Source of the DNA: Squalus acanthias | Taxonomy: Eukaryota | DNA: 64,000 bases | Assembly: GCA_030390025.1 (NCBI GenBank) | Contig: CM059432.1 | Span: forward strand, 93,064,001-93,128,000 | Direction of reading: 5' to 3' | In this document: positions 3,216 to 58,371 of the stretch, in pieces | How positions within the stretch are numbered: position 1 is the first letter of the stretch | Layout of the letters: each line of letters starts with the position of its first letter | Notes under the pieces: generated by a model | What the model was told of the DNA's origin: nothing | Seen by the model: only the letters and a program-made list of their open reading frames with translations | Database searches by the model: none | Program-made: the position numbers and the translations under genes

Positions 3216-4799
3216 TGAGTTAAAATTGCCTGTATGACTAACCTGCTGAGGTCCCACACCTACATGCTACTATTTAAGCCTGCTCCTCTGAGCAGGTGAG
3301 AAGGACACCCCCTGGAAAATGGTGGGGTCCATCTTTAAATATGGAGATCCAGCTCCGATGAGGCCATTTTTTAACTGTGCTCATGAGTAGTGAAGCGGAT
3401 GCGGCTTTCCCATTAGGTCCACCTAGCAGAAAGAGGAGTCGGGGCCAGAAGTCTCTTTACTTTTTTTTTTACTTTCCATGTGGGGCCAGGAGGAGCAGGA
3501 AGGCGATGAGCAGGAATGCTCCTTTGTGCACAAGGAGAGTTTATGCAACAGGCTCGAGGGGCTGAATGGCCTACTGCTATTCCTATGTTTAGGACTCCCC
3601 TGTCCCGGGCTTCCCCTTCCCTGATCAACTTACCTGAGTGTTGGGAGACCATTCCTTTGGTTCCTGGCGACGGCCTTCTGCTGCCTGGCATTGAGCTCCT
3701 GCCCACCGGAAGCTGACTCGGGGCATGCAGATAAAGCCCAGGAGTTAAAATTTCCTGGGGCTCACCCTGCCGAGGTCAGGACGGCTTACTGCCCGCCTCA
3801 GCCCCTGTCCGCCCAATTCTTGGCCGGAGTTAAAATCGGGGCTGTATTTCATGAACAACGTAGAGATAGGAGGAGGCTGTTCAGGGACAGAATCATTTCT
3901 AATGATGATCTGCAAGATCATGGCTTTCATTGACCGTTCAATTTTGGCTGTGGGAGCATAAGACGGAAGGTAGTGGATCAGCCATCCTTTATACACCTCG
4001 CTCGATTTTCCTTTCCATCAACGGCAAGCGATCACAGCCCAAAATTGGCCCCAACGCTAATTTTCCATCCAAAAAACTGACAGGACGAGCAACAATTACT
4101 CCCCTTTAGTCTATGATACTATGCCACCAAGCTACAATCCCCCCCAAATCTTATTCTGTTTAATTCCTAGATTGCTCAAGTAAAAGTTTTGTTAGCTCTG
4201 AACATTTCAAACTGAAATTACAGGCAACTGACTACCTGGGAGTTAGCGCAATCAATTATTTATTGCTTAAAAGCATTTAGTAATTCAAAGACCAACAATA
4301 AAAGAAAATGCAATACAATATCATCAACAAATATGGACTGTTTGGAAAAAAAATTGTAAATGTGACTGAGTAGTAGGGTTACTGATTTCTTACTAAACAT
4401 TGGCCCGGATTTTGCGATAAGAATAACTGTGAGGCTATCAGCGTTCATTGTTATTAAAGAGTAAATCGGACAGCAACTTCAGGCGTTCGCACCTGCGCAG
4501 TTAAAAGCGGAATTCAGGAAGTTGCTGTCCGAGTTGCCCTGCTCCTCCACATGCTTCGCTACACTGGTACCTTGCCGAGAAACTCGGCATTCACATACAT
4601 GCAACGGCGTGAAGTTGGGTTACTTACCCACTAAATATGCCAGAAAAAGTTAGGGTTTGTCCATTCAGGTGTAAGTGAATTTTTAACAGTGTGATAAGCC
4701 TTAATTACTGCCAAACAACCTCTCAAACACTGAAAATTTACTTTTACAAGTGTGGAGTCTCATTCCTTAATATTTTAATTGTTGGAGATTTTAAAAAAC

Positions 4800-6175
4800 T
4801 GGTGTATGCAGGCATTTACACTCCACACGAGCCTGCTCCCACCCTTCTTCATCTAACCCTATCAGCATATTCCTTTCTCCCTCAGTGCTTATCTAGCTTC
4901 CCCTTAAATGCATCTATGCTATTCACCTCAACAACTCCCTGTGGTAGTAAGTTCCACATTCTTACCACTCTTTGGGTAAAGACGTTTCTCCTGAATTCCC
5001 CATTGGATTTATTGGTGACTATCTTATACTTACGTCGACCCTATCAAACCCCTTCATAATTTTAAAGATCTCTATTAAGTCACCCCTCAGTCTTCTCTTT
5101 TCTAGAGAAAAGAGCCCCAGCCTGTTCACCCTTTCCTGATAAGTATATCCTCTCAAGTTCTGATATCATCCGTGTGAATCTTTCTTGCACCCCCTTCAGT
5201 GCCTTTATATCCTTTTTATAACATGGAGACCAGAACTGTGCACAGTAAAGTGTGGTCCAAAGAAGGTTTGATACAAGTTTAACATAACTTCTCTGCTTTT
5301 CAATTCTATCCCTCTAGAAATGAACCCGAGTGCTTTGTTTGCTATTTTATGGTCTTATTAACCTGCGTTACTATTTTGTGATTTGTGTATCTGTACCTCT
5401 AGATACCTTTGCTCCTCTACCCCAGTTAGACTCTTGGGGGGAAAAATTGGGTTGCTTTGCGCCTCCCGTTAGCTTCCCCGGGGGCACAAAGCCCCTAGCG
5501 CCTGGGCGCTGCTAACGCCTCCCACAAAATTCAGCGGGAGGTTAGCGGCAGCAGTAGCCGGTAGCGCCCCGTGGTGCTGCTCCACCGGTGATGACATCAT
5601 CGCCGTGCGCAGTGCCCCACTTGCGCCCTGGCCGCAAACTTGGGTTGCGCCCCTGACCTATCGCCAGACGATATGTCCGACAGGGTCAGGGTGGCGCTTT
5701 TGCAGCCGCAGCGGCACTAAAAGGGCTTTTTCATCAGGGTGCCAGCCGTGATCGCTCAGCCCGGCACTCCTCGAGTGGCGCTGTTGCACGTAGTGGCGCG
5801 AAATTCACTGGTAGCGCCCCAAGGAGGGGAGCGCTTCCAGTAGCACCCTTCCTTCTGCTTGGGGCGCTACTACTGAATTTACGGCGCAGGGGCGCTAACT
5901 TTTTCAGGGCGCTAAAATTAGCAACATTAGCGCCCCAAAGGGGGCGCCACCAAATTTTTCCCCCTTATTATCCAAGCAGTATGTGGCCTCCTTATTCCTC
6001 CGACCAAAATGTAAACACCTCACACTTATCGAAATTGAAGATAGTTTGCTAATTACATGCCCATTCTGCAAGTTTATTAATGTCTTATATTTTGTCGTAG
6101 TCTTCCTCTGTATTAGCTAAACCCAATTTGGTGTCGCCCGCAAACTTTGAAATTGTACTTCTGATTCCTGAGTGG
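4800..6175 (-). mobile_element. CR1 (HER1-like) LINE 3' fragment, degenerate, interrupted by a MITE
   Basis: Minus strand matches the RT C-terminus (SKFAGDTKLG-like) and 3' region of the CR1 at 38458-40366. Confidence 0.75.
5437..5964. mobile_element. Harbinger-type MITE (GGGGGAAAAATT family)
   Basis: TIRs GGGGGAAAAATT / AATTTTTCCCCC, imperfect TTG/TTA duplication, many subterminal AGCGCC/GGCGCT motifs. Confidence 0.8.
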
Positions 6176-6182
6176 GGTCCTT

Positions 6183-6900
6183 GGCCTGGATTTTAATCGG
6201 GAGGCGGGTTGGGAGCAGCGGGGCTCGGAAGCAGTCGGGAAACCCGGGAGAACGGGTTTTCTGCAGGCTCTGCTGAATTTAACGGCAGGGCCTGATTTGC
6301 ATTGGAAACCTCTGTTTCCCCCCCCACAGCCACAGATTGAGGCTGGCTGGCTGCAGGCGGGTAGGCCTGGGCACTAGGCCGCAGAGAGGAGGGAGGGAGG
6401 GTTCATGTGGGGGCCAGGGGGGTGGATCCGGAAGGAGGAGGGGGGGGGGAGTGAGCATCGGGAGGCCGGGAGTGGCTGATCGGGGGGCCAGGTCTTAATC
6501 GGGGGACCGGGAGTGGCAGATTGGGGGGCTGGCACTTTTCTTCCATGTCCCCATTCAAGCTGGCACTCCCCTCTCCCCCCCCCCCCGCACCCAGTCAATA
6601 TTGGCACTGTGCTTCCTCCCCCAACCCAATGTACTACTTCCAGCTTCTTCCCTCTTTCTCCCCAACGCATTCCTCTCAGCTTCTTCCCTTTCTCCCCAAA
6701 GCACCACTCCCAGCTTCTGCTGCCTTCCCTCTTCACTTCACTGTTATCCAATTCTCTCCCCTTCATTTCCCTCATCCCTCTCTCCTTCATTGCCATCCAC
6801 TCCACTCTTTACACTCAGCGCCACTCCTATCAGCACATAACTTAATTTCCCCCCCCCCACATTGGCCCCTTCACAAGGGAAAAGATTAAACCTCCAGGCC
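6183..6900. mobile_element. Probable Harbinger-type MITE with GC-rich, low-complexity interior
   Basis: Imperfect TIR GGCCTGGATTTTAATC ... GATTAAACCTCCAGGCC. Confidence 0.5.
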
Positions 6901-9061
6901 GGCTGAATTTTCCGAGGCTTTTACCTGGCAACAGTTAAGCTGCAAACAGGTGAGAAAGGTGTTGGTAAAAAGCCTAAGCTACAACACGCTAGTAACACGA
7001 CAATGTGGTTTGATACAATTTATAATACTGCAACGTATGCATGTAAACAAAAGTTTAGACAGAGTTTCACATGCGCCCCTTTAAGACTACCCAGTGCAAT
7101 TTCAGTCAGTATATAGTAGAGAAAGAAAATAAAAATGACTGACTAATACATTAAATATCTGTATAAAAAGATCCACGTGAAACAATAACTGCATATGAAG
7201 ATTTTTATTACATAGTACATATTTACAATCACGCAATGGTCATACTTGTGATTAACCAGTGCATTCAATTGTTTTTTTCTCCCTGACACTGGATTAGTTA
7301 GGCTCTTCAAAGATAAAGACTTGTATATCTTTTAAAACTGCCTAACATGTGCAAGGGAACATTAGTAATTAGGCCTGGAGTATACAAATTTAGACATTGG
7401 CAACTGCAAAAAATCTATTAAACAAACTCCAGAAATCACAGTGACCAAATTAGCTAATTAACCTTATTAGGCAGAAATTACCCAATTAGGAGGCCTAAAT
7501 ATTGAAGTCTGTCACAAAGAATACCTGACTTGCCAGTTTTCCAGCTCCAGTCAACTTTCAGTTATCTTGGGTTGTTCTCTCATGGACTGTATGAAGAGAT
7601 GTATGTGTCGCTAGCCTGATTAACTCTTCCAGGAATGAAAAATGCACAATCCTTTCAATCCCCCCAAAAACACTGGCCTGGACACAATTGCAGAACCAGG
7701 CCAGATTTGCCCTAAATTCCCACTGGAATGTACAGTTAGACTGACACAGACACTGACAGCACAGCGGTTTAATTGTCTCCACAGTACATGGAAACTGACA
7801 ATGGTAAAACAAAGCATCACATCAAACAGTTAAAGTCTGTAATATGTACAGTCTGTTAATAACTAGTACAGAAATTTTCCCCTATCATTTAACAGTCAAC
7901 ATGAATATCACTTAGAACGTTGCGAGTTTCTAACTTTATAGTCAGTGAAAAACAGGAGTTGCTATCTTCAGTCTCGGAATGCTAATGTTAAGGTGAAACC
8001 TTTATCAATGGTCTTTTTTAGTAGGTGCTTTTTTTCTAATACTTTCAATACTTTATTATACTGTGTATAGGTAATAAAATTGACAGGTAATATTTCAACT
8101 GCACACTCATTCTTCCAGTGGTGGGTTTCTCGGACAGAATTAAAACAGCTAAGATGGCGGACTTGTTTTGGCCATAACTGAGGTGGGTACCAGAGATGAG
8201 TGCCTGATAGTCAAAAAATGCCTCAAAAGGTCTGCACTTCAAAAAGACTGTTCATTTAGCTCCTACTTCCTATCTCCTTTCAGTTTAGTTACTTTCAGGA
8301 TAAAAGGAAGTGGGAAACGGTGATTAATGGGAGCCCAAGAAAGAAACAAACAATAAATACAGAAGAATCCTACTGAACACCCACATGTTCCTGCCACAAA
8401 GGATTTTGGGAACCCACCATGTTTTTATTTTCCAGTAAACCTTGATGGTACAACATAATCAAGACAGATGGTTGCTTTTAAGGCCACCTACCACTAGATT
8501 GGAGCCATGAAGACTTTTTTTTTACAATCCAAAGAATTTGGAAACTAGGATGAACCACTTCATTAATATTGAGGATAACCAATGAGTAACAACCGAATAC
8601 TCATTTTATTCAAAAAGTGTGCCAAAGCAGGAGAAAAATGATTCTATCCTCACCTGGATAGTGCTCAAGAGTAAGAGCTGTGGCCAATTTTCTTTTGCTC
8701 AGGTATACTGAAACCATTACACCTTCATCACTACCCTGGCTCGGTTAGTATAGGCCAGTGATTGAACTTGGAATCTTCCTGGTCTGTATGGCTCAGCGCA
8801 ACATTTAGCCACGTAGCCACCCAGGCCTTTTATTATGGTACCCTTGACTAGTCTTATTGACATGGATTGATATCCTCTGATTTTCCCACCCACCTTCTGG
8901 CGAGGCCACCTTTCCCTGTGGCTACTTTCTCAAATTGTCCAGGAAATTCAGGGAGAAGATCCCACATGCTGCCACTTCCTTAGAGCTGATGCAAATATCA
9001 CTTCTGTTATTTCACCAAAACTTGGGACAGTTAACCCCTTGGATTAGCCCTTATATATAAA

Positions 9062-29159: not shown

Positions 29160-29552
29160 AGCAACAGCAACTTGCATTTATATTGCACCTTTAGGACAGA
29201 GAAATACTTCACAGAGGTGTGAGGAAAAAAAGATGTTGAACCAAAGGAGAAATTACGAGGGGTGACAAAAGCCTAATTCAAAGGGAGCGGTTTAAAGGAG
29301 AGTCTAAAGGAAAGAGATGGAGGGGCAGATGGGTTTAGGCAGGAAACGGCAACGTTTGGGACCCAGACAGCTAAAGACACTGCCACCAATGGTGGATCGA
29401 AGGGGGGCATATGCACAAGAGGCTGGAGTCAGAGGACCGGAGAATTCAGAGAGTGGGGGAACGGGACGGGGACGACATTGGACGGCAGAAGGAGATACAT
29501 AAATGTGATGGGGCGAAACCATGGAAAGAATTAAACACATGGATGAGAATTT
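29160..29552 (-). mobile_element. L2-like 3' end, degenerate
   Basis: RSTIGGSVFSCLGPK motif; homologous to 42045-42749. Confidence 0.65.
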
Positions 29553-30096
29553 TAACTGTGACCTTGTTCAGAGGGGCAGGGATTTGGATGGGGAGGTGAA
29601 ATTCCTGAGCAGAAGAGCTGAAAGGCCAGGTGAGGGGAGGAGGAGGTGAGCAGGGGTTGATAGTGACTGAGAAAGGGAGGTAGAAGTAATGGGCTCGGGT
29701 CTGGAGTGGCAGCAAAAATTCGCAGGCGAACAGACACAGAGGGAATTCTGGGCCACAGAGATATGGCTGATATCAAGGCGAAACATATTTTCAAAGCTCC
29801 CAGAACACAGCGTGTAATATACGGGAAGCAGATATGGGGTCAGAGGGTGGAATATCTGGCAGCAGCAGCTCTCGCTGGTTACTCTTAAAGGGGAACTTGT
29901 TCCAAATTTGAAAAATGTTAGAGGCAAGGGGCAAAGGCAGGGCAGCACCATGGTGATGATAGCCACCTTCCAGTTAAGAGAATTGCAAGAACAGCCTAGA
30001 TAGAGGTGACAGATTGAATTAATGCTGTCTCAACTGTGGCCAGAATTGGGAGCAGGTGAGGAAGACATTTGCTGGGCTACACACTTGTCTTATAGA

Positions 30097-30545
30097 AAAA
30101 CTTACATTTATATAGCACCTTTCACGACCACCGGACGTCTCAAAATGCTTTACAGCCAATGAAGTACTTTTGGAGTGTAGTCACTGTTGAAATGTGGGAA
30201 ACACGGCAGCCAATTTGCGCACAGCAAGCTCCCACAAACAGCAATGTGATAATGACCAGATAAACTGTTTTTGTTATGTTGATTAAGAGATAAATATTGG
30301 CCAGGACACTGGGGATAACTCCCCTACTTTTCTTCGAAATATTGCCATGGGATCTTTTACGTCCACCTGAGAGAGCAGACGGGGCCTCAGTTTAACATCT
30401 CATCCGAAAGACGGCACCTCCGACAGTGCCGCACTCCCTCAGCACTGCACTGGGGTGACAGCCTAGATTTATGTGCTCAAGTCCCTGGAGTGGGACTTGA
30501 ACCCACAACCTTCTGACTCAGAGGCGAGTGAGCCACAGCTGACAC
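30097..30545 (-). mobile_element. tRNA-derived DeuSINE/SacSINE1-like SINE
   Basis: Minus strand has a tRNA-like head with box B GGTTCAAGTCC, the central GAGGGAGTGCGGCACTGTCGGAGGTGCCGTCTTTCGGATGAG domain, and an L2-like tail. Confidence 0.85.
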
Positions 30546-30599
30546 TTATAAGGCATTTTAATAACACAGAAGAACAATGCCCAGCTTTCTATCAAAAAG

Positions 30600-31021
30600 A
30601 AAAGACTTGCATTTCTATAGTTCCTTTCACGACCACCAGACATCCCAAAGTGCTTTACAGCCAATTAAGTACTTTTTGAAGTGTAGTCACTGTTGTAATG
30701 TAGGAAATGCAGCAGACAATTTGCGCACAGCAAGCTCCCACAAACAGTAATGTGATAATGACCAGATAATCTGTTTCAGTGATGTTGATCGAGGGATAAA
30801 TATTGGCTAGGACTCCCCTGCTCTTCTTCGAAATAGTGCCAGGGGATCATTTACATTCACTTGAGAGGGCAGACAGGGCCACGGTTTAACATCTCAACTG
30901 AAAGACAGCACCTCCGACAGTGTAGCACTCCCCCAGCACTGCTAGGTCTTTTGTGCTCAAGTCTCTGGAGCGGGACTTGAACACACAACATTCTGACCCA
31001 GAGGCGTGAGTGCCAACCACT
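30600..31021 (-). mobile_element. Second SINE copy, split by the Tx1 insertion; its 5' end lies at 40485-40517
   Basis: Homologous to 30097-30545. The sequence stops at ...GAGTGCCAACCACT and resumes as GAGTGCTACCCACTGAGCCACTGGCTGACAC. Confidence 0.85.
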
Positions 31022-31149
31022 TTTTAAAAATTATATTATTTATTGAACATTAAGAACATTTACAACATCGTGATCATTCCATTGTATCATTCAAATCCAT
31101 TCCGCTGCTCTGCACAGCTATTCCTCCACCACATATTAAACATCAAAAC

Positions 31150-34100
31150 CTGAAGTTTAATTTGTCTCCCGCAACATATATTCATCGATTGTACTTTAAA
31201 AATTGATCGTAAAATAATATCTTTAAATTCCTTTCTGAATAAAACATCCAGAGCCTTATAATGATCTTTTAGCTTATATTTAAAATACTCTTAGATTGAT
31301 TCTCCTCCCCTTAAAAAACAGAGCATTCCTTCTTTGCTCAATCACGAATCTAGCCAAACTGAACATTAAATTAATTGCTGCTCCGCTAGACTCAGGCAGA
31401 CTCTCCTGCAATCCCCATCTTAAAATTGAGTCCCACGGGATTCCCATTCTCGCTCTTCGGTCCCCACCCAGCAAAAAAACCTCACACAACTGTCGAACAT
31501 AGTACTTAAAATCATTTAACTGCAGACATAACACTAGTAAATGGGACAGAGTCTCATCCCGTGTCCCACACACTGGGCAAGTTGCCCCCGCCACTTGTCC
31601 AATCTTACATAAGACCGTCATGGTAAAAATCCGGTTATGAGCCAATTTGAAATCCAGTTCAATCCACTCTGGACATTTAAAATTTGCCCACACTCCCTTC
31701 CAAATCCTGTTGAAGTCCAGCTGTGGGTATATACTCTGCTAAAATTCCTGACCAGCAGGTGTCTTGAATCTCCATTCTCTAAATACCCCATAGAAATCTC
31801 GAGTATTACAGTTGTCAAATTGGACCAACTCTTCCCCTTTCTCCAGCAGAAAGCTTGGAAAAGCGGGACGCATTTTACTTCCTTTGGAGATTTCCGCATT
31901 TATTTCTTCCATCCAATCCTGTGGCATTGACCTCACAATCTTCTCATACATGATCATAATTGCTTTTTCCTCTACCTCCTGATTCTCCTCCCACACCATG
32001 TCCCTCACTATCGCTTCCGGCAACCAGCCTGGAATTACCTCGTATAATACATCTTTCACATATATAATACGAGCTTTTATAAAAGCTTGATTAAATAATA
32101 CCTCTGTTGACCCACCTGTTCAAAAATAAGGGCTGTTCTTAAAATTCATCAGCACCCTTGGGCATAAACTGCACACTTTTTAAAAATTGGGCCCAAGTCT
32201 CTACAACCCCCTTATAAAACATAGGGAGAGGTTTAATCGATTTCAAAACATATTATTGTATTCCATATACAATATCCCCTGCCCTCCTATCGCACTTCGT
32301 TTTAAAAATACTCAAAACAACTCTTCCAAAAACTTGTATTTGACTTCTGAAGAAATCTCTTCACCCATTTGATTCTAAAGGATTTTTTCTTCAAATCAAT
32401 ATCTGGGAAATTGAGTCCTCCCTGATTTCTCCGTCCAATGATGGTATTGTAAGCAACCAAGGCTGGTTTCCCTTCCCATAAAAACCTCACATAAGCCTCT
32501 CGGATGGACTTTTCCGCCCACTCAGGAATATCCTCCACCGTCAATAAGTACCATAGCTTAGACAGCAGGAGAGCAGACACCACTGTCGCTCTTCCTTGCA
32601 CTTTCAACCACCTTCTTTCCCATCTTCCCAAAATCTTTTTAATTTTCATAACCTTCGGTTCCCAATTTAATCGATCCACTTCATCCGTCTTTCTTGCACC
32701 CCATATGCACCCCCAGAACTTCCAAAACTTCCACCACCTTAAAAGGGACTTTCCTCCAACCATTCCCCCCTACCCCTTCCTGCAACCAGGCATTTGGACT
32801 TACTATAATTCACTCTGGCTCCTGAAGCTCTACAATACTCCTCCACTACGTCCATAGCTTTTCTCACTGACTCTTCATTTCTTAATGTTAAGGTTGTGTC
32901 ATCTGCATATTGGTGTATCACCGACACCAGCCCGGAACTGGGAACCGCAATCCCAACTACACCTTGTTCCTTTCACATCATGTAACGTAATGGTTCTGCT
33001 ACCAATGTGTACAACAATGGGGACAGGGGACAACCCCATCTCACTGACCTCTGTATCGGAAAATACTTGGATAAAAAACCATTACATTTAACACAGCTAA
33101 ATATGTTTGAATAAAAAATCCTTATCCACTCAATGAAATTTTCCCCGAAACCAAATGCTTCCAAAACCATCAATAAAAACTCATGAGAGACCCTATCAAA
33201 GGCTTTCTCTTGATCTATCTTTAATACATAAGCCTCCCTCCCACTCTCTTCCATGAGCTCTATCACATCCCGGATTGAGACCACAGAGTCTGCGATGTCT
33301 CGGCCTATGACTCCATAGGACTGAGAGGGCAAAGCTATGTGCGGCATCACCTCCTTCACACGATTTGCCACAACCCTCGCCAAGATCTTATAATCCACAT
33401 TTAACAATGTGATGGGCCTCCAATTCTTTAGATCCCTTCTATTCCCTTTATTTTTATAAGCTAAGCTTATGACACCTCTCCTCATAGATGGGGCCAGGCT
33501 TCCCTCAATTTTAATCTCCTTAAAAACCTCTAAAAGCAATGGACTTAAAATCTCTAAAAATTCTTTATAAAATTCTGCACTTAGTCCATCGGACCCTGGG
33601 CTTTTCCCCCCTTCATTCCACTTATTGCTACTTTTATTTCCGCTAATCCTACTTCTTTGTCACACATGCTTCTCTCATCCTCCTTTAAATCCTCTTCAAT
33701 AAAAGCACTAACCTTCTCCATCGGCAATTTGGAAATGTCTTCTTTTGTATATAACTCTTGATAAAAGCTGCTAGCCGCCTCTAAAATCTCCCCACTTTCA
33801 TTAATGATCTTCTCCCCTCTGTCAACTACTTTACAGACATCCGTAAACTTTTTGTTTATATTCTCTTCTCGACGCCGGTTAGCTGCCGCTCTCTCTTTCC
33901 CATAATGTACCGAAAAAACTTTTACCTCATATTTAAAATTGTCCCACCAAACTCTTCTTTCTTTCAAAAACAAAGGTTCCTTCCGAGCATTCTTTATTAT
34001 ATTTAAAATCCCTTCTTTATAAGCAATTTCTTTCAGGTATTGATTGTTTAAAATCCACACCCCTGGACCGATCTTAACTCTGCTGTTCCTAATTCTAAGA

Positions 34101-34785
34101 GTCAAAGCCGAGTGGTCACTAAAAAATACTTTTTTGTAATAAATCTCCATCACCTCAGAACTTAACCCTTCCCGTATTAACAGAAAATCTATTTGGCTCT
34201 GTTTTAAAACATCACCCACCCAACCTGTTCTGGAGAACTCCCTTTTTATGGGGCTCCGATCCCTCCAGAAGTCTCTTAAATTTAAATTTGCCATCATTTT
34301 TACAATCATCCCTCTGGAGTTATCATCCTTAAAGGTCATCTGGGCTGAAATGTCCATCCGAGATAAAAATACATTAAAATCCCCCACTATACAAGGGTTT
34401 TCCGCCTCTGCCACTTCAGTGAGTAACCACCGAAAAAACCCGCGACGCTTACAATGGTCGTTCGGTGCATAGATATTAAAGAGATCGCAATTAAATTCCT
34501 CCATTTTTACCTTTAGCCGTAAAAATCCTCCTCAGTGTCCTTGTCCACCAAGGCAACACTCTCTTTTATGGACAGACTCACCAAAACAGCCACCCCTCTA
34601 CGGTTATTGTTTGCACAACTTGCAAACACCTCTCCCTTCCAAACCTTCCGAACTCTTTCCAGGATATCCTCATCCCAAAAGGTTTCTTGCAGACACAAGT
34701 CAGTGCCTTTAAAACACTACAACAACTGCTGCAATTTCTTCTCACCCCTCAGTCCGTTCATATTAATCGAGACCAATGTAATCAT
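31150..34785 (-). pseudogene. Tx1 ORF2 (APE endonuclease, reverse transcriptase, CCHC), frameshifted
   Basis: Motifs in order across ORF fragments: MITLVSINMNGLR, CLQET, NIYAPN, VGDFN, SDH, NWRPITLLNVDYKILA, DQEKAFDRV, GCPLSPLLY, YADDTTL, CPVCGTRDETLSHLLVLC. Confidence 0.9.
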
Positions 34786-35141
34786 GGCTCCGAATAAGGG
34801 AAGTGTGCCTGATAATCTCCCCATCATTTAATCTCTGGCCCTTCCTTCCTCTCATGCTCCTTCCCAACTTTTCAGGCAGCTGTTGCTTTTTCCTGCAGCC
34901 TCCGGCTCTTTTTCACCACCTTCCCTGCTGTTTCAGCCTCTTCCTTGCATTAGGTTTGGACCGAGGAGCTGCCCCTTCTCCCTCCTTCTGCCCCTCACTA
35001 ACCTTTCCCTTTCCACATGATGCCACCCCACCCCTCACTTCCATGTCTCTGTCCCCCTCTGATTCCTCACTCTCAAGCTCTTCTGTAACATCCTGTTCCT
35101 GCTCCATGTCAGATACATAATCGTGCTCCGTCAGATACATA

Positions 35142-36652
35142 GGGCTGGATTTTGTCTTGGGGTCGGGTTAGGGTCGTGTTACCCACATTTCGTGTTGCCC
35201 CCCCGACTCCAGATTAATGTGGATGAATGATGGAATTTTCACTTAATTGGTCAATTGAGTTCAAGCATGTGGGAACCCATGAACCAATTAGTGGTTTCAG
35301 TCTGAAAGTAGCCTGTGATGATGTCATTATTGCAGGTCAGAGACTGCCTGCCTGGTCTCATAGATTGCCTGGCCTTTGCTGTGAGTGGACCTGGATGCAA
35401 AATGAGCAGCATCTGAGAGAGAGAGAGCGAGCGAGAGAGAGAGAGAGAAGAGAGAGAGAGAAGAGAGAGAGGGCTGGATTTTGAATGACCCGTGGAGTCG
35501 GGTTTGGAGGCGTGTGGGGGGTTAAAGTTGCGGGGTCGGGGGTCCCGACCCCATCCCGCCTCCACGCAATTTTGATAAAATCGTGTGCGGTGTTCCCGAC
35601 TCCGTCCCGCCTCCAAGAGGCGGGAGAGGCCATTAAAGCCCTTAACAAGCCCTAAATTGGCTCTGTAATGCCATTTTGAAACGTTTTAGCTAGTTTAACC
35701 CTTTTCCGACGTAAAGTACGCCTGATGTGAAACACTCCAGTGAAACCTGGCGGGAGCACAAGTGGATCGCTGACTATCAGATGCAGGTCCACTATTACAA
35801 CGGAGATGTGATGAAGGTAGTAGTATTAGGTATTAGATCTGTAAGTCGCCTCTGATGCTGCTGCATTGAATGTTTTCAGAGACTGCCTGGCCTTTGCTGT
35901 GAGAGGACCTGGATGCAAAAAAAATTCTCATTCTCTCTCTCTCTCTCTCTCCTCATTTTGCATCCAGGTCCTCTCACAGCAAAAGCCAGGCAGGTCCTCT
36001 CACAGCAAAAGCCAGGCAGTCAGTCTCTGACCTGCAATGCAGCAGCAATGATGACATCATCAGAGGCGACTTTCAGACTGAAACCACTAATTGTTTCATG
36101 GGTTCCCACATGCTGGAACTCAATTGCCCAATTAAGTGAAAATTGCATCATTCATCCACATTAATCTGGAGTCGGGGAGGAACACGAGATGCGGATGACA
36201 CGACCCTAACCCGACCCCAAGACAAAATCCAGCCCAGAGACTCTCTGAAGACATTCAATGCAGCAGCATCACAATACTGCTACTACTACATCACAATACT
36301 ACTACTACCTTCATCACATCTCCGTTGTAATAGTGGACCTGCCTATCCACTTGTGCTCCCGCCAGGTTTCACTGGCATGTTTCACATCAGGCGTGCTTCA
36401 CGTCGGAAAAGGGTTAAACTAGCTAAAACGTTTCAAAATGGCATTACAGAGCCAATTTAGGGCTTGTTAAGGGCTTTAATGGCCTCTCCCGCCTCTTGGA
36501 GGCGGGACGGAGTCAGGAACCCCGCGCCCGATTTTGTCAAAATTGCGTGGAGGTGGAATGGAGTCGGGATGGGGTCGGGACCCCTGAATCTGCAACTTTA
36601 ACCCCCCACACGCCTCCAAACCCGAGTCCACGGGTCATTGAAAATCCAGCCC
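35142..36652. mobile_element. ~750-bp Harbinger-type MITE (outer copy) containing an inverted copy of itself
   Basis: TIR GGGCTGGATTTT / AAAATCCAGCCC. ATA TSD at 35139-35141 and 36653-36655. Confidence 0.9.
35471..36235. mobile_element. Inner MITE copy, opposite orientation, inserted in the outer copy's (GA)n tract
   Basis: Same TIRs. AGA TSD at 35468-35470 and 36236-36238. Confidence 0.9.
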
Positions 36653-37611
36653 ATAATCTCCCTTAGAGTCTTCCTGCTATCGCGGTTTCTCCAACAGTGC
36701 CGCTCCCTTCGGCCTCATCTCCACCGCTGACCCTTGCTCCCCGTTTCTTCTCTCTCTGGGACAATGGTGCACCTATATTGCTCCCTTCTGGCATCTTTGT
36801 CTCCCCGCTCCCGTCCTGCTGCCCCTTTAAGGCTCCTGCCTCTTGCACCCTCTCCTTGTCTTGCCCCCTCCTGCTCTCCGAGATGCTCGACTCCTCATCT
36901 TTCTTTGGAGTACTTATATTTACCACGCACCCCACTCCTGCCTTCTCTCCCCCCGCAGACACCAGATTCTTTAGGGAGAGCTGAACTGTATTATGGCTCG
37001 ACTCTGCCCTCGACCCGTGCTGCCCTCTGCTGTCTTTGTCCTTTTCCACTGTACTTGGTGTGTTTTCCACAATCTCCATCCTGTTCTCTGCTCTGCAATT
37101 TTCTGCCTCTTCCTGCGCTCTTTTCTCCTTCCATTCACCAGCTGCGTCCTCCGCCTGCTCCGCTCCTCCAGCAGTTCCACTCAGACCTCCTGTTCCTTCT
37201 CCCATCTCATCACTCAAGGGGCTTCCTTCTGCCTCACACTCACAGCGGGTGGGGCCTTTGTGACACATCCCACAGCTCTCCGCCTTGCAGCTCCAAGCAA
37301 TGTGTCCAGACTCATCGCAATTATAACAGTACAAGTCTGGACAGTTTCTTACAAGATGGTCGTGTCCAAGACAATAATAACAAACCTTCACCTGGTTATC
37401 ATGTAGTATCCGGAAGTACTGCACCCCTTCCATTGTCTCAAATTTCATGCTATACGGCAATGACTTCACCCCCTCTGGGAACCGCACCTTTACGTAACGG
37501 GTTCCATCTGCTACCCGTGTTCCTGGATAGTATCTCCTCTTTACTGCCGAGCAAATTTTAATATCCCACGACTCCAACTTTTCGATTAGCACATCATCCT
37601 CAATATAAACA

Positions 37612-38027
37612 TGAGAAGTCGCACAACACCAGGTTATAGTCCAACAGATTTATTTAATTTTACAAGCTTTCGGAGCTATCGCTCCTTCGTCAGGTAAGTT
37701 AGCAATGAGAGAATCTCCCAGAATTCACAATTTAAACCCAGACAAAATCTATTCACATTATTCGCTACAACAAAGAGCACAGCCAAGACAATGAGATGTG
37801 TCCCAGGGGGTCCAGCGTGTCAAACCACCTGCTGGCTGCATATCCTGTCAATTTGTGTTCTTGTGTTTTTAAAAAAAAACACCTGGGAAGACCGGCCATG
37901 ATGTCAAGTCACGTTCTGTATCGTGACATGAACCCGATATCGCGATTGAGGCCATCCTCATGAGTGCGGAACTTGGCTATCAGTTTCTGCTCTATGATTT
38001 TGCGCTGTCGTGTATCTCGAAGGCAGG
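37612..38027 (-). mobile_element. Penelope-like element, 5'-truncated insertion (second PLE family)
   Basis: GIY-YIG C-terminus RQRKIIEQKLIAKFRTHEDGLNRDIGFMSRY*. 11-bp TSD CAATATAAACA at 37601-37611 and 38028-38038. Hammerhead near the 3' end. Confidence 0.88.
37660..37697 (-). ncRNA. Minimal type I hammerhead ribozyme
   Basis: Minus strand reads TTAC-CTGACGA-A-GGAGC-GATA-GCTCC-GAAA-GCTT-GTAA: intact core, perfect stems I and II, palindromic stem III AGCT. Confidence 0.85.
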
Positions 38028-38457
38028 CAATATAAACAGGCAGGTTTAAGAATGAGACCACCAGCTCTTCAGAATATAGCAGAGATACCTCCAAGAACTT
38101 ATCACCAACCTTCAAACTGAGTAAAAGTCTTTCCACCTCCTCTCGGCCACTGACCGTCACCTCGAACCCAACATTCAGCTTTGGTCGGCAGGCAAAGCAG
38201 CTTCCCTCGCCACAGTCCTCATGTGCCACAACCTGGATAATATCCCAAGCTCGTATCTCCTTATCCTCGCACTGAACCACCACCGTGTTTTCTTTTCCAA
38301 ACTGTCTGGGGTCTCGGCCCAAATCTCTGGGCCTTTTTTTCTCCCTTCCCCCAACATTTTCTCCCCTGATTAAATTCATCCTGGGAACACTGTCCTCTGA
38401 GGGGCCCAGCATTCCGGGCCCCTCAGCAGCTATCTGGCTGCTGTTTATGGACCAAAA

Positions 38458-40366
38458 TCAAGAGGGGCAAAATAGCTTACGAAAGCAAGCTGGCGGAAAA
38501 TATAAAAACTAACTCCAAAAGCTTTTATAAGTATATCAAGAGGAAAAGACTGGTGAAAACCAAAGTTGGCCCATTGCAGTCAGATACGGGGGAATATATA
38601 ACGGGAAATAAAGAAATGGCAGACCAACTAAATGCATACTTTGGGTCAGTCTTTACGAAGGAAGACACAAAAAACCTCCCTGGGATATCGGGAAAAATAG
38701 GGACATTTGCAAAGGAGGAAATGACGCAAGTCAATATCTCTAAGGATATGGTGTTAAGGAAGCTAAAGGGATTGAAGGCGGACAAATCCCCAGGGCCTGA
38801 TAACATGCATCCTAGGGTGCTGAAGGAGGTGGCCCTAGAGATAGCGGATGCACTAAGTATGATTTTTCAGAATTCATTAGACTCGGGAACAGTGCCCATG
38901 GATTGGAGGGTAGCTAACGTTACCCCACTATTCAAAAAGGGGGGTAGGGAAAAAGCAGGTAATTACAGACCTGTAAGCCTTACATCAGTTGTGGGCAAAA
39001 TGCTGGAGTCCATCATTAAGGATGAAATAGCGGAGCACTTAGCAAATGGGGACAGGATAGGACAGAGTCAACATGGATTTACAAAGGGTAAATCGTGCTT
39101 GACTAATCTATTGGAATTTTTTGAGGGAGTAACTGGTAAAATAGATGGGGGAGAGCCAGTAGATGTGGTGTACCTGGACTTCCAAAAGGCCTTCGATAAG
39201 GTCCCACATAAAAGATTAGCAGGGAAAATTGAAGCTCATGGGATAAAGGGGAAAGTATTGACGTGGATAGAGAACTGGCTGTCAGACAGAAAACAGAGAG
39301 TTGGAATAAACGGCTCATTTTCTGAATGGCAGGCAGTAACAAGTGGGGTACCACAGGGATCTGTCCTGGGTCCCCAGCTGTTCACAATTTACATTAATGA
39401 CCTGGATCAGGGAGTCGGATGCAGCATTTCCAAATTTGCAGACGACACTAAACTAGGAGGGGGGGTGGGCTCAGAGGAGGAGACCAGGAAGCTCCAGAGC
39501 GATTTGGACAGACTGGGTGATTGGGCGGATAAATGGCAGATGCACTATAATGTGGACAAGTGCGAAGTTATCCACCTTGGGTGCAGGAACGGGAGGGCAA
39601 ATTATTATTTAAATGGCAATAAATTGGGAGAGGGGGAAGTACAGAGAGACCTGGGTGTTCTTGTACACCAGTCACTGAAGGCGAGCATGCAGGTGCAACA
39701 GGCGATCAAGAAGGCAAACGGTATGCTGGCCTTCATAGCAAAAGGGTTGGAATACAGGAACAGGGATACCTTGCTGCAGCTGTACAGGGCACTGGTGAGA
39801 CCACACCTCGAGTACTGTGTACAGTTTTGGTCGCCTCATCTGAGGAAAGATGTTCTTGCCATGGAGGGGGTGCAGCGGCGATTCACCAGGCTGATACCAG
39901 GAATGGCGGGATTGACCTATGAGGAGAGACTATGTAGTTTAGGGATGTACACATTGGAGTTTAGAAGATTGAGAGGGGACCTCATAGAAGTGTATAAAAT
40001 TCTGACAGGTCTAGACAGACTAGATGCAGAAGGAATGTTTCCCTTGGCGGGTGAGAACAGAACTAGAGGACATAATTTAAGGATAAGGGCTAAACCATTT
40101 AGGACAGAAATGAGGGGGAATTTCTTCACTCAGAGGGTGGTGAACCTGTGGAACTCATTGCCACAGAGGGCAGTGTACGCCAGCTCATTAAATATATTTA
40201 AGAGGGAATTAGATATATTTCTACAGGCAAAAGGGGTTAAGGGTTACGGAGAGAAGGCGGGGACGGGATACTGAATTGGAGGATCAGCCATGATCTCATT
40301 AAATGGCGGAGCAGGCTCTAAGGGCCGGATGGCCTACTCCTGCTCCTATCTTCTATGTATCTATGT
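38458..40366 (+). mobile_element. Young 5'-truncated CR1 (HER1-like) LINE
   Basis: Uninterrupted RT ORF followed by a 3' UTR (GGAGCAGGCTCTAAGGGCCGGATGGCCTACTCC) and a (TCTATGT)-type repeat tail. Confidence 0.92.
38553..40274 (+). CDS. CR1 ORF2 reverse transcriptase (573 aa open, endonuclease missing)
   Basis: [60 protein letters not shown]. Confidence 0.85.
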   Translation: MKTKVGPLQSDTGEYITGNKEMADQLNAYFGSVFTKEDTKNLPGISGKIGTFAKEEMTQVNISKDMVLRKLKGLKADKSPGPDNMHPRVLKEVALEIADALSMIFQNSLDSGTVPMDWRVANVTPLFKKGGREKAGNYRPVSLTSVVGKMLESIIKDEIAEHLANGDRIGQSQHGFTKGKSCLTNLLEFFEGVTGKIDGGEPVDVVYLDFQKAFDKVPHKRLAGKIEAHGIKGKVLTWIENWLSDRKQRVGINGSFSEWQAVTSGVPQGSVLGPQLFTIYINDLDQGVGCSISKFADDTKLGGGVGSEEETRKLQSDLDRLGDWADKWQMHYNVDKCEVIHLGCRNGRANYYLNGNKLGEGEVQRDLGVLVHQSLKASMQVQQAIKKANGMLAFIAKGLEYRNRDTLLQLYRALVRPHLEYCVQFWSPHLRKDVLAMEGVQRRFTRLIPGMAGLTYEERLCSLGMYTLEFRRLRGDLIEVYKILTGLDRLDAEGMFPLAGENRTRGHNLRIRAKPFRTEMRGNFFTQRVVNLWNSLPQRAVYASSLNIFKRELDIFLQAKGVKGYGEKAGTGY

Positions 40367-40695
40367 AAAAAGGCCCTAAAACCTGAAAAAAAAAACCACC
40401 ACCAACTTTTTACAAACTCACTCCAACTCCCTGCAGTAATCAAGCAACCAGCAGCATCTACTCACTCCTAGCCCCTCCCACCTAGAGAGTGCTACCCACT
40501 GAGCCACTGGCTGACACTACAGCAAGGGTTCAATAATTTTCTAATTTGGGAAATAACAGGTATGCAATCAGATTGTGGCTTTGCTCTTCAAAAGCAGAGA
40601 AAAGGAAAGTAAAACATCCGAAGAAAAGAAAGTTGGAACATGTATCAAACTATTTTAAAATGTGAGTCGTTAATGTGACTTGATCTGGTTTTATT

Positions 40696-41366
40696 GGGGG
40701 GGAAAATTGGGTCGCGCCCCCTTTGGTGCGCTAGCGCCCCGAAAAAGTTAGCACCCCCGCACCTGAAATTCACCGGTAGCTACTGGAAGCGCCCCGCCTC
40801 CCTCCTGGGGCGCTGCGAGTGAATATCGCGGGGCTACGTGCCGCAGCGCCACGCTCTACGGCACGTCGCGCTGCAGTACTGCAGGCTTTCCTCCCCTTAT
40901 TAAAGGGGTGGGGCCTAGCGCAGCGTGACCTGGGGGCCCAGCTGGGCCACCAGGGATCGGAGTGCCGACAAAAGAGCCCAGCACTCAAGAGAAGTGCGGG
41001 ACTCACGGAGCGCAGCCGGCACTCCGCGGAGGGGGGGGGGGGGGGGGGGGCTTCACAGGAGGCCGGGGACGGCAAAGCGGGCAGGTGCTGGCAAGCGGCC
41101 AGCAATAAAAATGGCCGCCCGGCACCTTCCCTTTAATTTGCGCCACCCCGGCCGCAGGTAGGCCCTCCCGACCCAGTCGGACATAGCGTCCGCCGGTAAG
41201 TCAGAAGGCGCTGTGCATGGTGATGACGCCATCGCCGGCGGCGCAGCGCCGCGCTAACGGTTACCGGCGCTGCTAACACCTCCCGCGAAATTCAGCGCTG
41301 GTTGCTTTGCGCCCCGTTAGCGCCCCAGGGCGCTAACGAGGCGCAAATCAACCGAATTTTTCCCCC
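40696..41366. mobile_element. Harbinger-type MITE (GGGGGAAAAATT family), inverted relative to 5437 and 13349
   Basis: TIRs, ATT TSD and GCGCC-rich subterminal regions. Confidence 0.82.
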
Positions 41367-41504
41367 ATTGTGTTCCTCATCATTATAAATAACATGATTT
41401 CAGTGACTATGATCTATTCTTGTCGTGAATGAATGATTGATCAGTCATTTTTTGCAAGACATGGGAGAAGTTGGATACAATCTTTTTTCTGTGATTGACT
41501 AAAG

Positions 41505-41909
41505 AAGAACTTGCATTTGTCCTAAAGCACTTCACAACCAATTAAGTACCCTGAAGTGTAGTCACTTTTGTAACATAGGGAAACACAGCAGCTAACTCGC
41601 ACAAAGCAATGAGATAAATTACCAGATAATTTGTTTTGATGGTGTTGATTGAGGGATAATGTTGGTCAGGACACTGGGAGAACTCCCTGCGCTTCTTTGA
41701 ACAGTGTCATGGGATCTTTTGCATCCACCGATGGGCAGACATGGCCTCAGTTTAACATCCCATCCGAAAGACGGCACCTCCGACAGTGCAGCTCTCCCTC
41801 AGTACTGCACGTGTCAACCTAGTTTATGTACTCAAGTCTCTGGAGTGAGAGGAACTCATAACCGTATGATTACAGAGGCAACAGTGCTACCACTGAGCCA
41901 AAGCTGACA
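41505..41909 (-). mobile_element. DeuSINE/SacSINE1-like SINE
   Basis: Homologous to 30097-30545; box A TGGCTCAGTGG on the minus strand. Confidence 0.8.
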
Positions 41910-42044
41910 TCTAGCTAGACTAATGAGCGTTCACACTGCTTCTGCCGCTAAACAGGCAACTTGACTGTTTCAAAAGCAAAAATTCAACATGACAGCTGTT
42001 AATGTACAAATCTTGCTGTTAATGTCTCAATGACAACCTTGGAA

Positions 42045-42749
42045 ACAAGAACTTACATTTATACAACACCTTTAACGTAGTAAAACGTCCCAAGGTGCTT
42101 CACAGGAGCGTTATGAAACAAAATTTGACACCGAGCCACACAAGGAGATATTAGGGTAGATGACCAAAAGCTTGGTCAAAGAGGTAGGTTTGAAGGAGCG
42201 TCTTAAAGGAGGAAAGAGAGGTAAGAGAGGCGGAGAGGTTTAGGGAGGGAATTCCAGAGCTTAGGGCCTTGGCAGCTGAAGGCACGGCCACCAATGGCTG
42301 AGCGATTAAAATCAGGGATGCTAAAGAAGCCAGAATTTGAGGAGCGCAGATATCTCGGGGGGTTGTGGGGCTGGAGGAGGTTACAGAGATAGGGAGGGGT
42401 GAGGCCATGGAGGGATTCGAAAACAAGGATGAGAATTTTGAAATCGAGGCATTGCTTAACCGGGAGCCAATGTAGGTCAGCGAGCACAGGGGTGATGGGT
42501 GAACGGGACTTGGTGCGAGTTAGGACACGAGCAGCCGAGTTTTGGATGACTTCAAGTTTACGGAGGGTAGAACGTGGGAGGCCAGCCAGGAGTGCGTTGG
42601 AATAGTCAAGTCTAGAGGTAACAAAGGCATGGATGAGGGTTTCAACAGCAGGTGAGCTGAGGCAGGGGCTGAGTTGGGCGATGTTACGGAGGTGGAAATT
42701 GGCGGTCTTAGTAATGGCGCAAATATGTGTCGGAAGCTCATTTCAGGGC
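42045..42749 (-). mobile_element. L2-like LINE 3' fragment
   Basis: LADLHWLPVKQCLDFKILILVF ... GGRAFSCQGPKLWNSLP plus 3' UTR. Confidence 0.88.
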
Positions 42750-50865: not shown

Positions 50866-51069
50866 AATAGTTTTATTATTTTTATGGTACAAGGAACAGT
50901 AGGAACTAGTTACATCTCAATCGAAACTGTATTCTGTTCATTTGTGCATTGTGTGTAAAATAAACCAGTTTGTTGGTTTATAATTGTGCATCATCTCACT
51001 AGAGTACTTTTCAGTCCACCTACTGTAAAGACAGGAAAACACATGCACGATGTCACCACCAAACACATA

Positions 51070-51810
51070 GGGCTGGATTTTGAATGACCCGTGGAGTCGG
51101 GTTTGGAGGCGTGTGGGGGGTTAAATTTGCGGGGTCGGGGGTGCCGACCCCATCCCGCCTCCACGCAATTTTGACAAAATCAGTCACGGAGTTCCCGACT
51201 CCGTCCCGCCTCCAAGAGGCGGGAGAGGCCATTAAAGCCCTTAACAAGCCCTAAATTGGCTCTGTAATGCCATTTTGAAACGTTTTAGCTAGTTTAATCT
51301 TTTTCCGACGTGAAGTACGCCTGATGTGAAACACTCCAGTGAAACCTGGCGGGAGCACAAGTGGATAGCTGACTATCAGCTGCAGGTCCACTATTACAAC
51401 GGAGATGTGATGAAGGAAGTATTAGGTGTGAATGATGCTGCTGCATTGAATGTCTTCAGAGACTGTATGGCCTTTGCTATGAGAGGACTTGGATGCAAAA
51501 AAATTCTCTCACTCTCTCTCCTGCCACATTTTACATCTAGGTCCACTCACAGCAAAAGCCAGGCAGGTCCTCTCTCACCAACAGCCAGGCAGTCTCTGAG
51601 ACCTGACAGACAGCAATGATGACATCATCAGAGGCGACTGTCAGACTGAAACCACTAATTAGTTCATGGGTTCCCACATGCTGGAACTCAATTGCCCAAT
51701 TAAGTGAATATTGCATCATTCATCCACATTAATCTGGAGTCGGGGGGGGGGGGGGAACACAAAATGCGGATAACACGACCCCAACCCGACCCCAAGACAA
51801 AATCCAGCCC
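51070..51810. mobile_element. ~750-bp Harbinger-type MITE, left member of an inverted dimer
   Basis: TIRs GGGCTGGATTTT / AAAATCCAGCCC. ATA at 51067-51069 and 51811-51813. Confidence 0.9.
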
Positions 51811-51813
51811 ATA

Positions 51814-52543
51814 GGGCTGGATTTTGATACTGGGGCGGATTGGGGTCGTGTCATCCGCATTTCATGTTATCCACCTGACTGCATTTGGATGTGGGAGATT
51901 GATGCAATTTTCACTTAATTGGGCAATTGAGTTCCAGCATGTGGGAACCCATGAACTAATTAGTGGTTTCAGTCTGAAAGTCGCCTCTGATGATGTCAGC
52001 ATTGCAGGTCAGGTCAAAGACTGCCTGGCGTTTGGTGTGAGAGGACCTGGATGCAAACTGAGCAGCAGCTCTAAGGAGAGAGAGAGAGAGAGAATTTTTT
52101 TTGCATCCAGGTCCTCTCACAGCAAAGGCCAGGCAGTCTCTGAAGACATTCAGTGCAGCAGCATCAGAGGCGACTTTCAGACCTAATACTACTACTACCT
52201 TCATCACATCTCCGTTGTAATAGTGGACCTGCAGCTGATAGTCAGCGATCCACTTGTGCTCCCGCCAGGTTTCACTGGCGTGTTTCACATCAGGCGTGCA
52301 CATCAGGGTTAAACTAGCTAAAACATTTCAAAATGGCATTACAGAGCCAATTTAGGGCTTGTTAAGGGCTTTAATGGCCTCTCCCGCCTCTTGGAGGCGG
52401 GACGGAGTCGGGAACACCGCACACGATTTTATCAAAATTGCGTGGAGGTTGGAGGCGGGATGGGGTCGGGACCCCCGAATCTGCAACTTTAACCCCCCAC
52501 ATGCCTCCAAACCCGACTCCATGGGTCATTGAAAATCCAGCCC
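51814..52543. mobile_element. ~750-bp MITE, right member, opposite orientation
   Basis: Same TIRs. ATA at 51811-51813 and 52544-52546. The flanks rejoin a Penelope fragment (CACCACCAAACAC-ATA-TTCTCCTTCCC). Confidence 0.9.
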
Positions 52544-52770
52544 ATATTCTCCTTCCCTCCCCTTTCAGCATTCCGATGGGACCGTTCCCTCCGTGACACC
52601 CTGGTCCACTCTTCCATGTGACACATGCGAGGTCACAGCATCCAGCACACGCAATAAGGGGTCTTTTTTTCAAAGTCCTGAGTCACGGCTATCATTCAAC
52701 CTTTATAAAACACTGGTTAGGCCTCAGCTAGAATATTGTGTTCAATTCTGGGCACCACACTTTGGGCAGT

Positions 52771-57266: not shown

Positions 57267-58371
57267 TCACTGGAATCGGAGTCTGATAAGGCCTTCATGG
57301 ACATCCTGTCCAGAACGGGTATCTGCTGCCTGCCTCCTCCCTTCCTCCTCCTCTTCCTGAAGTAGTCCTGCATCCCTGTGGCAAGGGCTACGCCCTCATG
57401 ATGGCCAAGTTGTGAAGCATGCAGCAGATCACCACAAAATGGGACACCTGCTCCGGCGAGTACTGGAGGGCTCCTCCCGAGCGGTTAAGGCAGCGGAACC
57501 GTTGCTTGAGCACCCTGATGGTCTGTTCGAAGACGTTCCATGTGGCGGCATGGCTCTCATTATATGAGTGCTGGACAGGGGTGGTGGGGTTGCGGAGGGG
57601 AGTCATCAGCCAGGTGTAGAGCGGATAGCTCTTGTCTCCGAGCAGCCACCCTGGAGTTTGATGTGGTGGCTGGAAGATTGCTGGCACACTGGACTGACAC
57701 AGGATGAAGGCATCGTGACTGTTGCCAGTATAGCGGGCATTGACCATCAGGATGCACTAGGCGTGGTCGCACAACAACTGCACATTAAGTGAGTGGTAGC
57801 CTATCCAGTTACAGAACATCTCAGGATTGTTATGTGGCGCCTGCAAAGTCACGTGGGTGCAGTTGATGGCGCCCTGCACCATGGGGAAGCCCACTATCCT
57901 GGCAAAGCCACATGCACACTCGTCATGCTTCTCTCTGTTCAGAGAGAAGACAAAGTAGTCCCTTCTCCTCGTGTAGAGAGCCTCTGTGACCTTCCAGATG
58001 CAGCGATGGACAGCGAACTGGGAGATGATAGCTATGTCTCCTGCTGCAGACTGGAAGGATCCGCTGACGAAGAAATCGAGGGCCATGGTGACCTTGAGGG
58101 CTACTGGGAGAGCCATGTTTGCCGTGCTCTGAGGCCGCAGGTCTGGTTGCAGGAGGTGGCAGAGTTCTGTGGCCACCTTCTTGGTGAAGCTGAGCCTCCT
58201 AAAACACTGCTCCTCGCTTAAGTGGAGGTAGGAGAAGTGCTCTCGGAAGACCCTAGGTGGTAAAGGCCTCCTGTTGAGAGCCCTCATGGCCCTACTCCTC
58301 CTCCCTCTGCGCGCATCTTCTTGTCTTCTTCACTGCCTCCGCTCGAGGGGAAATGCAAGTAGCGTCCCCAT
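57267..58371 (-). pseudogene. Harbinger DDE transposase (HARBI1-like)
   Basis: GFPMVQGAINCTHV, YHSLNVQLLCD, HDAFIL, WLLGDKSYPL, EQTIRVLKQRFRCL, CCMLHNLA. In-frame stops, and the first catalytic D reads N. Confidence 0.9.

Follow-up and report, generated by a model that had tools for sequence, protein, structure and literature searches.

A Dead Tx1-Type Retrotransposon in Box A of a Shark tRNA-Derived SINE Probably Belongs to a Family That Prefers This Site

Within a 64,000-nucleotide stretch of Squalus acanthias DNA (the window), the minus-strand insert at 31022–40484 is a Tx1-type non-LTR retrotransposon, a dead copy in box A of a tRNA-derived SINE. We read it as a member of a Tx1 family with a target preference, which comes from a Mutsu-like lineage and inserts preferentially at one base of the SINE head, and we put the probability of this reading at about 0.7. 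That the family may target the SINE head had been suggested in a first-pass annotation of this DNA. The suggestion is supported by junction contigs of run X16, in which two different element tails meet the target, and by kin that sit in 5S and tRNA-Asp genes.

Results

The host SINE lies on the minus strand. Its 5' start, with the first half of box A (40506–40501), occupies 40501–40517; read from 40517, the complete box A covers 40506–40496 and the D-arm region runs to 40485, where the SINE breaks off. It picks up again at 31021, directly after the A-rich tail of the Tx1-type element, and the rest of it, with box B (30982–30974), body and tail, fills 30600–31005. As the first-pass annotation had stated, excision of 31022–40500 restores the SINE head, and the element (40484–31022) and its host are co-oriented, both on the minus strand. 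The excision joins 40517–40501 to 31021 in a single head with zero surplus bases. The rejoined SINE aligns by BLAST to three other copies in the window (81%, 72% and 71%). It has the attributes of a tRNA-derived SINE, namely a tRNA-like head, boxes A and B and dispersed copies, and it may resemble the Deu-SINE SacSINE1 of dogfish, a type marked by a Deu central domain and an L2/CR1-type tail. Four copies of this SINE fill 2.5% of the 64-kb window, and because SINEs take up that share, one insertion somewhere in a SINE proves nothing. The anticodon arm of the head does not pair. ARAGORN found 0 tRNA genes over the whole window, and it reports the rejoined head only after its threshold is lowered; the head is therefore not a tRNA gene.

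The 16-bp target-site duplication that the first-pass annotation had placed at box A does start in the middle of box A and span the D-arm region, but its two copies, 31006–31021 and 40485–40500 on the minus strand, are identical at only 13 of 16 positions, or at best 12 of 14. A match of 13/16 was reached by 6 of 2,000 shuffles, so the duplication is above chance, yet imperfect. Its 5' copy (40485–40500), comprising the second half of box A and the D-arm, agrees at 16/16 with the SINE-head majority of the contigs described below, and all three differences fall in the 3' copy (31006–31021). At position 31016, within the 3' copy, C is found in 35 contigs of run X1 and 43 contigs of run X16. With 3% change per copy since insertion, an asymmetry of this kind has a probability of 0.007; if the 3' copy is older host sequence (8–13% diverged) and the 5' copy was templated by a copy of the target on the element RNA, the probability is 0.07–0.21. 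To go by this one locus, the element may bring its own 5' copy of the target and write it over the host bases, which would leave a pristine 5' duplication beside a 3' copy with three differences. Extensions at the 5' end that derive from target sequence have been described for SINEU-2 (PMC4494074).

The 9,463-bp insert had been taken as Tx1 throughout. A Tx1-type element is indeed present, but 427, 1,514 and about 1,914 bp belong to nested elements, which together make up 3.86 of the 9.46 kb and leave the Tx1-type element a net length of 5,608 bp. Its 5' end is formed by the first part of the 5' UTR (40372–40484, minus strand), with a T10 run at 40395. A 5'-truncated LINE in the opposite orientation follows at 38458–40371 (plus strand), carrying a 634-aa open RT frame (RVT_1, 1e-31); its ends are approximate, with a possible 4-bp duplication, and we assume it to be of the CR1 type. 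The long open frame at 38616–40274 on the plus strand is part of this LINE and not of Tx1. ORF1 (34913–38412, minus strand) encodes CCHC knuckles with a zf-CCHC match, contains a stop at 36663 and holds the two other nested pieces. One is a 427-bp piece at 37612–38038 (minus strand) with a perfect 11-bp duplication (11/11) and no Pfam match; judged from its peptide only, it is presumably a Penelope-like 3' end. The other, at 35142–36655 with no strand assigned, is a palindromic MITE composite with a 3-bp duplication and a relative at 51069–52552 (80–89%). The arms of the copy at 35142–36655 stand in rearranged order around a (GA)n run.

ORF2 (31280–34827, minus strand) encodes an apurinic-type endonuclease, the RT and a C-terminal zinc finger. 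Five frame changes relative to an intact relative, plus stops, interrupt it, and about 70 codons are missing between endonuclease and RT. With ORF2 broken by the frame changes and the codon gap, the copy is dead and unable to move. The 3' UTR (31022–31279, minus strand) bears an AATAAA signal and ends in a short, decayed A-rich tail. Over 976 letters the window copy differs from three high-depth contigs of run X6 at 26 positions (2.7%). After insertion, the copy appears to have taken up the three nested elements and decayed. Self-BLAST and tblastn found no further copies of the Tx1-type element within the window.

Assignment to the Tx1 clade is supported by the domain set, that is, the CCHC knuckles of ORF1 and the endonuclease, RT and zinc finger of ORF2, together with a poly(A)-type 3' end and a target-site duplication; T8–9 tails occur in the junction contigs. 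Pfam matches were obtained to zf-CCHC, Exo_endo_phos_2 (weak, 0.0043), RVT_1 and zf-RVT. The endonuclease matches those of the L1 family, the best match being the Tx1L loop chimera of PDB 2v0r. Three known elements are ruled out by target. An Rfam search of 29500–42500 returned no 5S and no U2, but only chance hairpin matches on the MITE. The element is thus not Mutsu, its flank being a tRNA-like SINE head. It is not Keno, with no U2 in its flanks and with a U2-inserted relative (L096) outside the group of the window RT; nor is it Dewa, which sits in the spacer of tRNA-Leu arrays, given the ARAGORN result.

Of the words of 30600–35100, 30–47% are present in each of 20 of the 23 runs listed. 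Contigs from four of the runs (X1, X6, X11 and X16), which represent four other organisms and not the host genome, were mapped onto 30985–32200. The numbers that fitted were 1,638, 3,013, 71 and 223, and the Tx1-type family is therefore multicopy in all four organisms. At least 10 contigs of X16 part from the element before 31021, and the majority sequence of their loose ends (agreement 0.78, median length 16 letters) is the SINE head, exactly in register. At least nine more carry a different 3' tail; their loose ends stand before 31039, and the majority sequence (agreement 0.62, median 27 letters) includes the target motif CTACCCACT, adjoining a T run. A further 12 X16 contigs show the empty site, with the target joined to the same SINE start as at 40501–40517, and here the upstream run-on has a median of 194 letters; by contrast, the loose ends of the junction contigs are short, as is to be expected if the flank too is a repeat of high copy number. 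The recurring flank differs from the window locus at 4 of 30 positions, so the junction contigs are not simply the ortholog of that locus. With SINE heads as dense as in the window (4 in 64 kb), only about 0.5 of 5,000 randomly placed insertions would be expected at this base.

Several properties of these counts bear on how they are read. They were taken from the 24 loose-end rows listed and are lower bounds, since 355 further rows lie outside these, and contigs are not equal to insertions, as a single amplified junction could yield several. The depth of X16 at 31016 is 4,596, against 217,695 in the next bin; loose parts are not counted in depth. Depth ratios were rejected as a measure of the targeted share. 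A Tx1 family has been called target-specific when more than 20% of its flanks are of one kind (PMC4494074). Here the corresponding evidence is the at least 10 and 9 X16 junction contigs with a target majority, which is a count among the rows listed and not a share of copies. Recurrence at one base is shown in one organism (X16) of the four, which is not the host genome.

The other runs differ from X16. No junction row is present among the six rows listed for X1. Non-SINE sequence stands before 31038 in X6 (2 contigs, agreement 0.73) and in X11 (5 contigs, 0.64). Because the same two runs also show unlike sequence behind 31086, these flanks probably belong to a sister family. Between 31038 and 31086, another repeat in these two runs seems to have no more than about 48 bases in common with the 3' end of the element, and it may be a sister family or a non-autonomous partner. 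Two contigs of X6 and X11 that cover 31016 end 6 letters away and were read as SINE-only. The first-pass annotation had made its proposal depend on the flanks of other copies; in X16 the SINE-head junction is repeated, while the unlike flanks of X6 and X11 are probably those of another family.

One could suppose that the family has little preference, that the window copy hit a SINE by chance, and that the X16 contigs stem from a few duplicated insertions or from a sister subfamily. The share of the window filled by SINE copies, the non-SINE flanks in X6 and X11, the low junction depth and the uncounted total of targeted and untargeted copies are all compatible with this. However, two distinct element tails are found at one and the same base, the consensus-like target differs from the window locus as described, and kin sit in Pol III genes, and we consider this explanation quite improbable. 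It is likewise conceivable that the junction is inherited, the SINE body being part of the element's own RNA through 3' read-through. Co-orientation, the short tail and the consensus-like recurring flank would be expected, and 5' and 3' additions have been described for Tx1-mobilised elements (PMC4494074, for 5' extensions). Against this, the 5' portion of this very SINE is present at the opposite end of the element, there is a 16-bp duplication and no second head, and tail length and 3' end differ between the two junction groups, all of which makes an inherited junction very improbable.

To place the RT we collected relatives. An RT search gave 2,569 matches, the best 64% identical over the query and none from the same family, and scans of metagenome and genome contigs supplied 149 loci. 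These loci seem to be DNA of animals or other eukaryotes that is present in microbial assemblies. No relative was found in viral contigs. FastTree was run on 147 aligned rows and IQ-TREE on 43 of these, hand-picked as thinned FastTree neighbours plus outside rows; the IQ-TREE tree was midpoint-rooted. The first-pass annotation had called for an RT tree with named Tx1 elements. The references in the tree built here are the zebrafish protein BAC82613.1, a TX1-labelled coral protein and target-typed loci. The window RT groups with target-typed loci, in a set of 28 of the 43 rows set off by a 100/99 branch. Inside this group it has no close sister and forms its own branch, the placement of which is not resolved. 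The relatives are distant, at 55% in the RT at best and a tree path of 1.36 or more.

The group includes 10 loci with DNA. Three have a 3' junction with flank, two stop at the tail and so show none of the flank, three cover internal parts and the remaining two (L001 and L081) have 5' ends only. All three with a 3' junction flank sit inside a Pol III gene and are co-oriented with it. In L084 (junction at 4436) the 5S gene resumes at position 21, and in L085 (junction at 2758) at position 33. In L100 the interrupted gene is a tRNA-Asp, which belongs to a tandem array with units of about 500 bp, and the break is in the D-arm. The gene runs up to base 10 on the 5' side of the element and continues after the tail from base 21 or 22, so that about 10 target bases are lost. 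This relative (3462–7670) is 5'-truncated, and it is a Tx1-type element inside a tRNA gene proper. The cut sites of the relatives thus differ from one another and from that of the window element. The 5' flank of L001 matches the first 30 bases of 5S in register at 20 of 30 (score 40, shuffles 32.8 ± 4.5); since this likeness does not beat the shuffles, L001 was left out of the junction count. The assemblies behind L100, L081–L088 and L094 held no further junction of the RT group.

Small-RNA-gene targets are not unique to the group, because outside it one element ends 5 bases upstream of an intact tRNA-Gln (L107, 7200–7310), one lies inside U1 (L002, 6052) and one, Keno-like, inside U2 (L096, 7352). 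The tails of L093 and L095, also outside the group, end at a U1-like start. At the 5' junction of L106 (3863–4168), a unit of a tRNA-Ala array is duplicated in inverted orientation.

The first-pass annotation had left the choice between the SINE and its parent tRNA as the target. If the true target were a tRNA gene, or the box A motif in general, SINE heads would be hit as look-alikes. In L100, a member of the window RT's group, the cut falls within the tRNA-Asp D-arm, and the rejoined head aligns across the site to tRNA-Gln and tRNA-Ala from fetched loci with scores of 64 and 67 (shuffles 36 ± 4.5), as such a target would predict. On the other hand, the recurring 30-letter flank has the non-pairing anticodon arm of the SINE and not that of the tRNA-Gln of L107, no tRNA flank occurs among the 24 loose-end rows listed, and the L100 junction lies 7–8 bases further along the D-arm. 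We therefore favour the SINE, on account of the unpaired anticodon arm in the flank, and regard the parent tRNA or a general box A motif as unlikely.

Discussion

Target-primed reverse transcription suggests an order for the nicks. The endonuclease would nick the template strand of the SINE between tRNA-equivalent positions 13/14 or 14/15, and the poly(A) RNA would be reverse-transcribed from that nick. A cut of the second strand some 16 bases on would then produce both the 16-bp duplication and the co-orientation. The catalytic motifs of the endonuclease are present. Its beta-hairpin loop is 2 residues longer in 12/12 group members aligned than in 6 outside rows, and its alignment with the Tx1L loop grafted in PDB 2v0r needs no gaps, so that it has the Tx1L length. 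The Tx1L endonuclease nicks almost only its own target and the hairpin loop shapes the nicking preference, but the loop graft alone failed to transfer the Tx1L specificity (PMC1950540).

Box A is retained in the 5' remnant of the host SINE, box B and half of box A are found in the 3' remnant, and T runs follow within 130 bases. Because the boxes are separated and T runs are this close, Pol III transcription of the host SINE would be lost. The insertion moves the two boxes about 5.6 kb apart and would thus silence the SINE promoter, presumably at little cost to the host.

Mutsu, which Kojima and Fujiwara 2004 reportedly placed in the Tx group, shares with the window element its two ORFs, endonuclease and RT, poly(A) tail and position near the 5' end of a Pol III-type unit. 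MutsuDr1–7 are zebrafish LINEs lying about 20 nt inside 5S rRNA genes (PMC5340908), and L084, of the same RT group as the window element, resumes 5S at the Mutsu position. The zebrafish protein BAC82613.1 is probably Mutsu, to judge from its grouping. Unlike Mutsu, which is found in 5S rDNA arrays, the window element lies in a dispersed, tRNA-derived SINE head, and its RT, on a branch of its own, is about 45% identical to the fish 5S-type rows. Dewa of zebrafish occupies the spacer of tRNA-Leu arrays, and Mutsu 5S genes (PMC3706591). Dewa, compared here by description only, also has a tRNA-linked target in a multicopy setting, but in the spacer, whereas the window element and L100 cut inside tRNA-like sequence.

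Tx1L in Tx1D (Xenopus) and Tx1-Mar in Mariner-N4_AMi (crocodilians) likewise use a mobile element as landing site (PMC4494074), and the window element has a hairpin loop of the Tx1L length. Their targets, however, are DNA transposons (also LTR elements and Harbinger), and the available text of PMC4494074 names no SINE target. Dada DNA transposons insert in tRNA genes (PMC3706591) and, as here, the duplicated bases are part of box A; they differ in being DDE transposons with 6–7 bp duplications, a different mechanism and real tRNA genes as targets.

Reported targets of the Tx1 clade are Tx1D, U2, microsatellites, Mariner, LTR elements, Harbinger, satellites, U5 and 5S (PMC4494074). By target, the window family is none of the reported Tx1-clade families, though it works like them. 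The literature searched, in the text available, contains no SINE-targeting Tx1 family; it includes PMC4640811, PMC8869645, PMC3747384 (a table of which names SacSINE1), PMC5753468, PMC10946416, PMC13343379, PMC2684134 and PMC4889948, and Repbase, Dfam, Kojima and Fujiwara 2004 and the supplements of PMC4494074 may list one. A known habit, that of the target-specific Tx1 elements, is likely combined here with a new target, the SINE head.

On our reading, the family would descend from a Mutsu-like lineage targeting Pol III small-RNA genes and would have moved to a dispersed, tRNA-derived repeat of far higher abundance. In its full form, this would mean that a lineage cutting in Pol III genes jumped, in these sharks, to the genome-wide SINE head, where it destroys SINE promoters and may carry a 5' copy of the target; we hold this extended account to be tentative, and rather doubtful as a whole. 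If such a jump took place, a LINE would be preying on SINEs rather than serving them. If the family does target the SINE head, one RT lineage has three related targets, the 5S gene, the tRNA D-arm and box A of a SINE, and shows how targets in gene arrays can give way to dispersed repeats. The lineage would also offer a natural series for finding the endonuclease residues that move the cut site, which bears on site-specific gene insertion. A Tx1 family that targets SINE heads opens no new class of system.

A few further observations were made. L084 and L085 are two related elements at different sites in the 5S gene. Many assemblies in L081–L149 are labelled as prokaryotic and contain LINEs of eukaryotic type, some of them within long arrays of RNA genes, which suggests contamination with host DNA; one such protein bears the NCBI label Cetobacterium. 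In the window, a 190-aa frame at 57757–58329 (minus strand) is, by its look, presumably a piece of a Harbinger-type transposase. A neighbouring SINE copy at 30094–30548 (minus strand) lacks about 12 bases, the gap starting at the inferred nick site. This gap could have been left by the repair of a cut that led to no insertion, or it could be an ordinary deletion through microhomology.
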